Assembly (NCBI GenBank): GCA_048938105.1
Contig: JBHLMN010000011.1
Location: 64,001-128,000, forward strand
Direction of reading: 5' to 3'
Length of the DNA stretch: 64,000 bases
Origin: Promethearchaeota archaeon
GTDB lineage: Archaea > Asgardarchaeota > Heimdallarchaeia > Hodarchaeales > Hodarchaeaceae
Shown in pieces: positions 18,401 to 21,467 of this stretch (position 1 is the first letter of the stretch; each line of letters opens with the position of its first letter). The notes under the pieces are model-generated. The model was given only the letters and a program-made list of their open reading frames with translations. It was not told where the DNA came from and did no database searches. The translations under genes and the position numbers were made by a program.

Positions 18401-19813
18401 CTATCCTAATCTAATACCCCGCATTCTAACGTGTCCACCACCAGCGTAAACTGGTACTCCTTGCATAGGATCACTTTTTCCACAGATCCCTGGAAAATCA
18501 AAAGTAAGATCTCTAGAAACACCGTCAATTGAAGAAAATAATCCCACAGAAGTAAGTTCCATTACTGGACGACGAATCATTATCTCTGTAATTTCACCAT
18601 TCACTATTTGGTAACATTCAAAACCAACATATTTACTTTGATAACGTCGATCATCAATATTCCACTCCGTAAATGATAGCATATATATTCCATGTTTCAC
18701 ATCTTCAACCAGTTCTTCAAACGTGAAATCTCCTGGTTTCATATAAGTATTGGACATTCTTATTATAGGCTCACGATCAAAATTTTCAGATCTAGCTGAA
18801 CCATTTGACCCAAGACCAAATTTCACACCAAATTCTCTATTTAGTAAGGGTTCATTAATTATTCCATTTTTAATCAGAATTCTTTCACGTGCTTTCACAC
18901 CTTCATCATCATATTCATAATAACCGCCTGTACCTATAAGAGTAGGATCTTCACAAATTGTCACATGTTCAGAACCAACACGAGACTCTCCTAACTTTAA
19001 ATCACGCCAAAATGATTCCCCAGCTTGGGCACCTTCACGTCCCATGATTCTATCACCTTCACTAGGATGTCCACAATTTTCGTGACAAATAATACCCACA
19101 ACTTCAGGCCCAACAACAAAGTCTACTTTTCCTGTAATTCTACTGTCTGATTGAGCTGCAACTTTTGCTAATCGGGCGCAATGATCATCATATTCATCTA
19201 ACCAAGTTTTTACTCCTTCCCAACCAGTACTACGAGTTAAATCAACCCACCTTTGTTCAGAGTCTAGAAGTCCTTTAGCTGTTATAATTGAATAATATTT
19301 TAACATGGATAGATTCCCCTCGATCTTAGTCCCCTCAGAGGTTATGATATATTTTTTTGAACTCTGTGCCTCAAAGGTAGTTGCTCTAGTATTGATATTA
19401 TGATTTTCTGCCATTTTATCCATTTCTTGCAATAGTTCGAGCATTGTATCGGTATCAATGTCCTCTAATTTTTCTTTTGTATGAACCTCCCATTTTGCCT
19501 CATTCGTGATCGGATCACCAAAATCTATCTTTTCTTTAGGATTAGAGCGCTTTGCCATTTTCACTCCTGAGATAATAGCCCCTTTTACTTCTTTTTTTGA
19601 TATTTTGTCCACCGATACGAAGGCTAATCCTCCATTTACAAGGATACGAAACCCAATACCCAGCCATGGTTTATGTTCTCCTGAAATTAATGTACCATTA
19701 TGTAAAAAGAACACAGTTTTTTGTCCATCAATTAATCTCGCTTCTGCATAATCTGCACCATTTTGGTGAGCTAAGTCAACCCCATATTCAGCCAAATCTT
19801 TTCCAACTGACAT
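18401..19813 (-). CDS. tldD: TldD metalloprotease subunit
   Basis: HENCGHPSEGD zinc motif, YDDEG, PIIRMSNT and CGKSDPMQGVPV; start placed at MSVGKD. Confidence 0.92.
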   Translation of the reverse strand: MSVGKDLAEYGVDLAHQNGADYAEARLIDGQKTVFFLHNGTLISGEHKPWLGIGFRILVNGGLAFVSVDKISKKEVKGAIISGVKMAKRSNPKEKIDFGDPITNEAKWEVHTKEKLEDIDTDTMLELLQEMDKMAENHNINTRATTFEAQSSKKYIITSEGTKIEGNLSMLKYYSIITAKGLLDSEQRWVDLTRSTGWEGVKTWLDEYDDHCARLAKVAAQSDSRITGKVDFVVGPEVVGIICHENCGHPSEGDRIMGREGAQAGESFWRDLKLGESRVGSEHVTICEDPTLIGTGGYYEYDDEGVKARERILIKNGIINEPLLNREFGVKFGLGSNGSARSENFDREPIIRMSNTYMKPGDFTFEELVEDVKHGIYMLSFTEWNIDDRRYQSKYVGFECYQIVNGEITEIMIRRPVMELTSVGLFSSIDGVSRDLTFDFPGICGKSDPMQGVPVYAGGGHVRMRGIRLG

Positions 19814-20136
19814 CCTTATCAACTCTAGAAATACTATTACCATAGTTTTATCGGTATTAGCTAATTTATTTTTTATCTGCAAATATCTTTCTCTCGGGTT
19901 TTTTAAACTCTTGTCAAGAAAATATTAAACAATTTCATCTCAATGTAGTAATGGTTAAAATCAAGCTCGAGTCTTTAATTTAGGGACTGCTTTTAACAAT
20001 AGAAATAATTGAGGCACACAAAGGCATAATTACAGCTCAGAGTGAGGGAATGGGTAATAAATAACCTTTTGTATTACCTTATTACGAGAGAAATTAATAG
20101 AACCTAAGTAAAAATAACTAAACAGAACAGGATAGA

Positions 20137-20268
20137 TTAATGCCAGTACCAACGCATTTTCTCTAATTCTTCTGCAGAAATCTTGGGTTCCTTGCCGTAC
20201 TTCTTTTCCAAATCATTGTACTTCTTAATAGTACCTTTGGGTAGGTTTTTGTGATGAGACGATGACAT
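20137..20268 (-). CDS. Unannotated 43-aa protein MSSSHHKNLPKGTIKKYNDLEKKYGKEPKISAEELEKMRWYWH
   Basis: Manual translation; TTTAAA box at 20294-20299, about 26-31 nt upstream (leaderless-type spacing). Confidence 0.6.
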   Translation of the reverse strand: MSSSHHKNLPKGTIKKYNDLEKKYGKEPKISAEELEKMRWYWH

Positions 20269-20390
20269 ACAATTTTCATTATAGTATGAACCCTTTAAAC
20301 TCGAAAGAGAGAGAGTTAATCGAAAATGAAACTATGGTAGTGAATGAAGATTTATAAAGAGCTTAATCATCTATATAATTGATGATAAGT

Positions 20391-20522
20391 ATGACATTTA
20401 AGAAAAATCGCTCTTCTCCACGATTAAAAAAACACAAGATCAATAAAGAGGTTGTAGAGCAAATAAAAGACACTAAACGTCGTATGAAAGAGAAAATCAC
20501 AGAATCTAAACCTAAGAAATAA
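20391..20522 (+). CDS. Unannotated 43-aa Lys/Arg-rich protein MTFKKNRSSPRLKKHKINKEVVEQIKDTKRRMKEKITESKPKK
   Basis: Manual translation; TTTATAAA at 20351-20358; alternative in-frame ATG at 20382. Confidence 0.6.
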   Translation: MTFKKNRSSPRLKKHKINKEVVEQIKDTKRRMKEKITESKPKK

Positions 20523-20615
20523 TAGATCAAAAATTTTGAGTGGTAATCCAGCAATCCTTAGTTATAATAACAATACATACAATTTCCAAAAAAGCTAATC
20601 GTTAGAGGTGACCAT

Positions 20616-20735
20616 ATGCCCCGAAAAGGAAAGGGAGTTAGACGTATTCTCCGAGAAGAAAAAAGATTGCGAGAGAAAAAAAAACAAGGGAAAAAATCTT
20701 GGCGTTTTAAAAAAGAAAATATCAATATGGACTGA
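20616..20735 (+). CDS. Unannotated 39-aa Lys/Arg-rich protein MPRKGKGVRRILREEKRLREKKKQGKKSWRFKKENINMD
   Basis: Manual translation; strong RBS GAGGTGA at 20605-20611; ends 18-24 nt before the tlyA-like gene. Confidence 0.7.
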   Translation: MPRKGKGVRRILREEKRLREKKKQGKKSWRFKKENINMD

Positions 20736-20753: not shown

Positions 20754-21467
20754 TTGAGTATGCGTTTAGATGAATGGCTGGTTCAAACGCAATATTTTTC
20801 TTCCAGATCAAAAGCTAATCGCTTCATTCGAAATATTGGGGTAATTATAAATGAAAAACTTGTGAAAAAACCAGCTTATAAAGTAAAACTTCATGACCAT
20901 GTTAATATTGAGGAATCAGCACTTCAGACTTTTACAAAACCGTTAGGTTATGTCAAAATGAAATGGTTATCTTCAAATCCTCATTTCCCTCCCATTAATC
21001 TGCAAGATAAATGCTTAGATATAGGTGCAAGTGCTGGAGGATTTAGTCTTTATCTGTTAGAACAAAATGTACACTCTGTGCTAGCAATTGAAATCTCACC
21101 AGATTTTAAGCCATTTTTAGAAGAAATCCAAAATAAATTCCCTAATAAGTTCTCATATTGGATAAAAGATTTTTTTAAAATAACTTCCAATAGTTTTCCT
21201 TGTCTTTTCAATCTTATCACAGCTGATTTAACATTGGATCCCTATTTTTTACTTGAGAAATTAGAGCTTTTTACTTCACTCTTACAACCATCTTCAATTC
21301 AAGCACGTCTTCTATTAACAATTAAAACTGGGAAAATCACAAATTTTAAAGATGTACTGGTGAAAATTGAGCAAAATGTTGATGATCTTTGTACAGATAT
21401 ATCCCTTAAATGGCTAGAATCATTACCAGATAAACAAGAACAATTTCTACTTCTTTTAAAGTCGTAG
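20754..21467 (+). CDS. TlyA-like rRNA 2'-O-methyltransferase (S4 plus FtsJ-like domain)
   Basis: MRLDEWLV..SRSKA S4 motif, KPAYKV, and LDIGASAGGFS SAM motif. Confidence 0.85.
   Translation: MSMRLDEWLVQTQYFSSRSKANRFIRNIGVIINEKLVKKPAYKVKLHDHVNIEESALQTFTKPLGYVKMKWLSSNPHFPPINLQDKCLDIGASAGGFSLYLLEQNVHSVLAIEISPDFKPFLEEIQNKFPNKFSYWIKDFFKITSNSFPCLFNLITADLTLDPYFLLEKLELFTSLLQPSSIQARLLLTIKTGKITNFKDVLVKIEQNVDDLCTDISLKWLESLPDKQEQFLLLLKS

Follow-up and report, generated by a model that had tools for sequence, protein, structure and literature searches.

Between tldD and the gene for a TlyA-like methyltransferase, the genome of a Promethearchaeota archaeon of the order Hodarchaeales (Heimdallarchaeia; GenBank assembly GCA_048938105.1, here G000; 5.85 Mb, 35% G+C) holds three very short open reading frames (ORFs), and the question that this locus raises is whether they are genes and, if so, what their products could do. 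The locus lies in a stretch of 64,000 nucleotides (nt), the window, which corresponds to positions 64001 to 128000 of contig JBHLMN010000011.1 (C61) and to which all coordinates given below without a genome or locus prefix refer. A first-pass annotation of the window had described a cluster of three tiny, basic, and unannotated proteins, and all three ORFs are indeed present, on the strands, at the positions, and with the lengths that it had assigned to them:

ORF1, 20137-20268, minus strand: 43 amino acids (aa), with a variable Ser/Lys-rich N terminus and the conserved C terminus YLE+KYGKEPKIS..EL..+W.WH.
ORF2, 20391-20522, plus strand: 43 aa, net charge +12, with the conserved core KK.KI(N/D)KEV(V/I)EQIKDTKRRMKEKI.
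ORF3, 20616-20735, plus strand: 39 aa, net charge +12, with an N-terminal hook, MPRKGKG, followed by a long predicted helix.

Judged by their substitution patterns, all three ORFs are genuine genes that encode conserved proteins and are under purifying selection. In the reading that we favor, which is tentative and falls just short of being probable, they are three independent microprotein genes restricted to Hodarchaeales, and ORF2 and ORF3 would encode polycationic helices that dock on RNA or on the ribosome.

We searched 40, and later 82, Heimdallarchaeia genomes in all six frames; 20 genomes other than G000 share its GTDB genus, and 61 belong to other genera, two incomplete genomes from the same order being among the latter. 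ORF3 was found in 18 of the 20 other genomes of the genus by a hidden Markov model (HMM) search, ORF2 in 14, and ORF1 in 19, together with additional ORF1 paralogues; outside the genus, none of the three was detected in any of the 61 genomes. The genus is a deep one, its members being 58 to 61% identical in ribosomal protein eS4, and the start codons, stop positions, and lengths of all three ORFs are kept across it. The ratio of nonsynonymous to synonymous differences (pN/pS) was 0.146 over the first 30 codons of ORF3 (12 loci; pS, 0.68), 0.16 over its 27-codon core (17 loci; pS, 0.72), about 0.28 over the whole of ORF2 (pS, 0.62), and 0.16 over the last 25 codons of ORF1 (pS, 0.85), synonymous sites being close to saturation in all three (pS, 0.62 to 0.85). 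The first-pass annotation had proposed lineage-specific microproteins and had named homology searches across Asgard genomes and substitution rates as checks. Both spoke in its favor: the ORFs are conserved and, among the 82 genomes, restricted to one genus, and pN/pS, at 0.146 to 0.28, is lowest in the annotated frame, indicating purifying selection.

Tiny frames of this kind could nevertheless be chance openings in AT-rich intergenic DNA or overlap a noncoding RNA. Lys-rich frames arise easily in this genome because of its 35% G+C content, and one antisense frame of ORF3 is likewise open in all relatives. However, pN/pS over the other five frames of ORF3 ranged from 0.31 to 2.8, above the 0.16 of the sense frame, and 89% of the third codon positions of ORF3 were variable, versus 30% of the second positions. 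Rfam gave no match above noise, a single noise-level match to a snoRNA being the only one returned. The substitution pattern thus excludes both chance ORFs and noncoding RNA, and we regard this explanation as extremely improbable.

Across the genus, 20 to 27 of the 27 residues in the core of ORF3 (74 to 100%) are identical. This core is 85 to 89% identical between G000 and two genomes, G001 and G013, with which it shares 58 to 61% identity in eS4, and all 27 residues are identical in G003 and G012, in which TldD is 78 to 80% and TlyA 57 to 78% identical to the G000 proteins. ORF3 is slower-evolving than a core ribosomal protein. Since its core is conserved beyond eS4, TldD, and TlyA, we argue that it would form part of a tightly packed interface rather than act as a generic polycation.

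ORF2 and ORF3 are both strongly basic (K+R, 17/43, with a pI of 10.7, and 17/39, with a pI of 11.4, respectively), and ORF3 is in the top 12 by K/R content among the 32,116 small ATG-initiated ORFs of the genome. Speaking of three basic proteins was an overstatement in the case of ORF1, because with a K+R content of 10/43 and a pI of 9.5 it is only mildly so. AlphaFold2 predicted one helix for ORF3 (residues 6 to 38; mean predicted local distance difference test score [pLDDT], 80) and a basic N-terminal tail followed by a helix for ORF2 (residues 19 to 39; mean pLDDT, 75.8). Together with the composition, these models support the view that ORF2 and ORF3 resemble nucleic-acid-binding peptides, a function that had been suggested for all three proteins; the suggestion is supported for ORF2 and ORF3, by composition and predicted single helix, and ORF1 is not very basic.

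Searches for relatives extended well beyond the genus collection. Pfam and NCBIfam gave nothing above threshold for the three ORFs or for 48 members of the ORF3 family, 25 of the ORF2 family, and 15 of the ORF1 family. Sequence and profile searches of the PDB with ORF3 gave no match at an E value of ≤10, and no match above 0.80 was found in the ESM Atlas. A PDB match of ORF2 to a metacaspase was rejected as due to chance. An exhaustive HMM search with ORF3 against 1.84 billion representatives returned five clusters, all of 40 to 47 aa, and no fused or longer form of ORF3; longer proteins containing ORF2 were not found either, which counts as weak evidence. Word-based searches added 47 relatives for ORF3 and 24 for ORF2. 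Most have no source name; in the few cases where one is given, the entry is a hypothetical protein of Hodarchaeales, of Heimdallarchaeota, or of a loosely labeled Asgard metagenome-assembled genome. Because some NCBI and JGI records do list homologues, under the label hypothetical protein, the description of the ORFs as unannotated holds only in part.

We propose that ORF2 and ORF3 would serve as small accessory subunits docked on a structured RNA, the ribosome or rRNA being the most plausible one, that the 27-residue core of ORF3 (PRKGKGV...I..EE.R..EK.KQ) would be the contact surface, and that ORF1 would stand outside any machine common to the other two. Several observations weigh against this proposal. 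No homologue of known function emerged from Pfam, NCBIfam, the PDB, the ESM Atlas, or the exhaustive HMM search with ORF3. Six of the 20 genus genomes, some of them 93 to 94% complete, yielded no ORF2, a gap that would be unusual in a core component of the ribosome. The conserved glutamates of ORF3 and its hydrophobic stripe (V8, I11, L12, and L18) would suit a protein partner equally well. Finally, a ribosomal protein confined to a single genus would be odd, but this genus makes up nearly the whole order in our collection.

The invariant glutamates and the hydrophobic stripe of ORF3 also speak for a different reading, in which the microproteins are small regulators of enzymes, with proteins rather than RNA as their targets, and ORF1 in particular would be a regulator or a substrate of TldD/TldE. 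Small enzyme-binding regulators are known in archaea, one example being sP26 of Methanosarcina mazei. In most syntenic loci ORF1 lies upstream of tldD-tldE and in the same orientation, and conservation in ORF1 centers on the 25 C-terminal residues, which form a motif with two invariant tryptophans. Against such a role, ORF1 has paralogues in unrelated places, its distance from tldD is about 250 to 530 nt and it has its own promoter, and no conserved partner adjoins ORF2 or ORF3. We thus find enzyme regulation rather unlikely and consider the link of ORF1 to the TldD/E peptidase to be only positional.

By its sequence, ORF1 belongs to the Hodarchaeal W-x-W-H microprotein family. Like the other members, it ends in YLE.KYGKEPKI(S/T)...W.WH followed by the stop codon, has a length within the range of 28 to 60 aa, and shows selection on its last ~25 residues. 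The family alignment identified residues L20, E21, K23, G25, E27, P28, I30, E34, W40, W42, and H43 of ORF1 as invariant, and its paralogues elsewhere in the genome stand in unrelated contexts. No Pfam match was obtained for ORF1 or the 15 family members. A profile search of the PDB did weakly pair ORF1 with the N-terminal zinc-finger region of RBM22 (KYGKEcKIc...fRW versus KYGKEPKIS...RW; 8.9 bits per copy). We rejected this relation as probably due to chance, the total having been inflated by a duplicated chain and the Cys ligands being absent from ORF1.

For ORF3, ribosome docking can be given a more specific form, in which the protein corresponds, as a separate polypeptide, to the C-terminal extension that only eukaryotic eS4 carries and binds the small subunit beside eS4. 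Of the 48 ORF3 family members, 17 matched PF16121 (40S_S4_C), residues 4 to 23 always aligning with positions 29 to 48 of its 48 (E values of 0.015 to 1.6). With hhalign, the ORF3 family aligned with the human tail at a P value of 2.3e-5 (probability, 76%; 26 columns; 42% identity) and with the human and yeast tails together at 9.2e-5, whereas the equally basic ORF2 family, which served as a control, gave a P value of 0.52. The human tail came third among the 111,166 six-frame segments of the genome under the ORF3 HMM, and composition-preserving shuffles reached the real score in 5 of 50,000 cases for the human tail (1e-4) and in 24 of 50,000 for the yeast tail (5e-4). Moreover, the match begins both at the N terminus of ORF3 and at the point where eS4 of the Pyrococcus/Thermococcus type ends (...KPxISLP). 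Beyond this archaeal end point, human eS4 continues with PRGKGIRLTIAEERDKR... and yeast eS4 with PKGKGIKLSIAEERDRR... (both confirmed in the PDB); ORF3 starts with MPRKGKGVRRILREEKR.... The basic tail is absent from the eS4 of G000 itself and from 20 sampled Asgard eS4 proteins.

The likeness, the single hint of a ribosomal role, is borderline, and several points count against it. The PF16121 scores, 9 to 13 bits, lie far below the gathering threshold of 27 bits, and because the lead came from screening ~24,700 families, the corrected E value is 0.02 to 1. The ORF3 profile found no eS4 chain in the PDB at an E value of ≤10, and the reciprocal search, made with a crude two-sequence profile of the tail, failed, ORF3 ranking only 695th in the genome. 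The genes for ORF3 and eS4 are not linked, the other Heimdallarchaeia searched yielded no ORF3, and short basic helices converge readily. Overall, it seems doubtful that ORF3 is the counterpart of the eS4 tail, and from these alignments true relatedness, or an equivalent binding site, appears to be similarly unlikely. Hodarchaeales have been proposed as the archaeal order closest to eukaryotes, and to our knowledge the C-terminal extension is fused to eS4 in all well-studied eukaryotes. It is conceivable, if rather improbable, that the eukaryotic extension originated as an independent microprotein bound next to eS4 and became part of eS4 by a later fusion, ORF3 being the archaeal version preserved in Hodarchaeales.

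The eS4 proteins of these archaea have tails of other kinds. That of G000 (G000:C9:29789-30586, minus strand; locus L061:1447-2247) is 266 aa long and bears, after ...KPVIEIP, an 18-residue acidic extension, IETPIEIPPETGAKIDEL, and acidic tails occur in other members of the genus as well. In three genomes from other Asgard families, eS4 has a short helical tail, LP(S/T)EEE..(I/L)(M/R)(K/R)R.

The first-pass annotation had likened ORF2 and ORF3 in character to eL41/eS32, TMA7, and SERF, and they could accordingly be diverged members of these families. Size, charge, and a single helix are what they have in common with them. However, the genome has an eL41-like gene of its own, outside the window: a separate 22-aa ORF, MRNKWKKKRLRKRKRKERRRTR (G000:C9:155637-155702, minus strand; locus L052:2038-2103), which tblastn matched to yeast eL41 at an E value of 1e-5 and 64% identity. 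It is preceded by a Shine-Dalgarno-like GAGTGAG and is 86 to 100% conserved in at least 15 of the 20 genus genomes. Since this gene stands elsewhere in the genome, ORF3 is not eL41/eS32. In addition, neither PF05162 nor the pattern KWRKKR...RRLKRKRR matched ORF2, ORF3, or the 73 members of their families (48 and 25), and no family member matched TMA7 (PF09072) or SERF/4F5 (PF04419; N-terminal motif MxRGNQR...) at an E value of ≤1. Scans of the genome with PF05162, PF09072, and PF04419 gave nothing (for TMA7 and SERF, at an E value of ≤10); such scans are weak for tiny genes, because the one with PF05162 missed the eL41-like ORF. The likeness therefore did not survive, and we judge membership of ORF2 and ORF3 in these families to be highly improbable. 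In a table of a published review (PMC9932298), Heimdallarchaeota and other Asgard phyla are entered as lacking eL41; going by the 22-aa ORF, the lack in Heimdallarchaeota appears to be an annotation gap.

The genes that flank the cluster are the following:

tldD, 18401-19882, minus strand: PmbA/TldD metallopeptidase by Pfam, the co-oriented neighbor downstream of ORF1.
tlyA-like gene, 20760-21467, plus strand: S4-domain and FtsJ-type methyltransferase by Pfam (S4 and FtsJ).

Translation of tldD probably starts at the Met of MSVGKDL near 19813, as homologues begin at the equivalent Met. The spacer between the stop of ORF1 and tldD (19883-20136) measures about 250 to 320 nt, depending on whether the TTG at 19882 or the Met near 19813 is taken as the start, and no gene or RNA family was recognized in 19883-20136. 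On the other side, 24 nt separate the stop codon of ORF3 from the ATG of the TlyA-like gene at 20760. The TlyA-like protein scored 62 to 64 bits against the NCBIfam TlyA models, the cutoffs of which are 186 to 250 bits.

The short gap raises the possibility that ORF3, perhaps together with ORF2, serves the TlyA-like rRNA 2'-O-methyltransferase as its dedicated cofactor or adaptor, with expression from one operon; the first-pass annotation had described the two plus-strand ORFs as running into the rRNA methylase gene. There is no T-run in the gap, and in 9 of 19 genomes tlyA comes next after ORF3, even at some loci where the whole block is inverted. Of the remaining genomes, three have ORF3 in the same neighborhood without tlyA and seven have it elsewhere. 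Nevertheless, the link is not conserved: the TlyA-like gene is present in 11 of the 20 genus genomes, compared to 18 of 20 for ORF3, and at least eight genomes contain ORF3 but gave no TlyA-like match, one of them a single contig with 96% completeness. Conversely, tlyA stands beside ORF1 but without ORF2 or ORF3 in three genomes, and the presence of ORF2 does not track that of tlyA. Beyond the genus, the 82 genomes contained the TlyA-like gene in one other Hodarchaeales and one further Heimdallarchaeia genome, and a positional search upstream of tlyA in G021, which belongs to another genus, and in G020 found no ORF3-like gene. This pattern of presence and absence largely refutes a role as TlyA cofactor, which we consider very unlikely.

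The order tldD-ORF1-ORF2-ORF3-tlyA as such is confined to a subclade. ORF2 is located elsewhere in seven genomes; in four of these, which form one subclade (G013, G019, G004, and G017; loci L048 to L051), it lies directly upstream of, and co-oriented with, a gene for a conserved predicted membrane protein of ~640 aa. ORF2 and ORF3 are adjacent also in a different neighborhood of one genome (L021). The two families are unrelated according to hhalign, and no similarity was seen between ORF1 and either of them, the pairs with ORF1 having been judged without direct comparison. The three ORFs belong to three unrelated families and not to one module, and their cluster is a neighborhood of the subclade without a functional tie to tlyA or tldD.

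In line with three independent genes, we propose that each would be served by its own archaeal promoter and ribosome-binding signals. The TATA-like and Shine-Dalgarno motifs claimed by the first-pass annotation were found where it had placed them and are conserved in orthologous loci. Aligning the ORF1-ORF2 spacer from seven genomes and inspecting the ORF3 start gave the following elements:

ORF1 TATA box TTTAAA, 20294-20299, minus strand: 26 nt upstream of the ATG, with a core, (T)TAAA, in 7/7 syntenic loci and variable flanks.
Candidate regulatory site of the ORF1 promoter, 20305-20329, strand not assigned: AAGAGAGAGAG (20305-20315) and GAAAATGA (20322-20329), invariant in seven genomes.
ORF2 TATA box TTTATAAA, 20351-20358, plus strand: TTATAAA box, with TT(A/T)TAA conserved in seven loci.
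ORF2 Shine-Dalgarno position, 20380-20386, plus strand: TGATGAT here (degenerate), (T)GAGGAT in 5/6 aligned relatives.
ORF3 Shine-Dalgarno GAGGTGA, 20605-20611, plus strand: 4 nt before the ATG, with a GAGGT-type motif in most orthologous loci.

Given the usual archaeal spacing, the distance of 26 nt between the TATA box and the ATG of ORF1 predicts an mRNA that is leaderless or nearly so; transcription would be expected to start near 20268 for ORF1, near 20380 for ORF2, and near 20590 for ORF3. The two invariant blocks, AAGAGAGAGAG and GAAAATGA, sit in the stretch that separates the promoters of ORF1 and ORF2, which point away from each other, and immediately precede the TATA box of ORF1; they are a candidate transcription factor site. 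A motif made of a CT run plus TATA occurs only twice in the genome, at the window locus and on contig C27, and was rejected as a genome-wide regulon motif. In two relatives the gap between ORF2 and ORF3 is ~45 nt, and the two genes are probably on a shared transcript there. In G000, the gap between ORF3 and tlyA contains no T-run and no terminator-like sequence; the ORF3 transcript would probably read through into the TlyA-like gene, so that the two are probably cotranscribed.

Asgard genomes have been mined for eukaryotic signature proteins, and genes of fewer than 50 codons have mostly been overlooked. Here, a stretch with the look of unannotated intergenic DNA contains three strongly constrained microprotein genes. 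Should ORF3 be bound to the ribosome, and especially should its likeness to the eS4 tail be true, it would offer a testable case for the origin of eukaryote-specific extensions of ribosomal proteins. The clear eL41-like gene would also correct the published entry for Heimdallarchaeota in the table of PMC9932298.

How the three microproteins compare with known systems differs from one to the next. The W-x-W-H family has the same C terminus as ORF1 (YLE.KYGKEPKI...W.WH), the same restriction to the genus, and the same purifying selection, whereas ORF2 and ORF3 are unrelated to it. Regulators of the sP26 type are likewise stand-alone genes of <50 aa with their own promoters and a narrow lineage, but they show no homology to the proteins described here, no conserved enzyme gene neighbors the latter, and ORF2 and ORF3 are far more basic. 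TMA7 and SERF, small Lys-rich eukaryotic proteins, are similar in size and in their Lys/Arg/Glu-rich composition but have no motif in common with ORF2 or ORF3. eL41/eS32 (25 aa) is also tiny, extremely basic, single-helical, and missed by gene callers; it differs in that there is no sequence match and in that ORF3, with its Gly-rich hook at the N terminus, conserves acidic residues. Compared to the eS4 tail (PF16121 positions 29 to 48; human residues 239 to 263), ORF3 is a separate, unlinked gene, is more basic, has an additional Lys in the GKG motif, and scores below threshold, while the two have in common the motif P-(R/K)-(K)-G-K-G-(V/I)-(K/R)-x-x-I-x-E-E-(K/R) and a basic helix after it, in a match that covers the entire conserved core of ORF3 and the entire tail.

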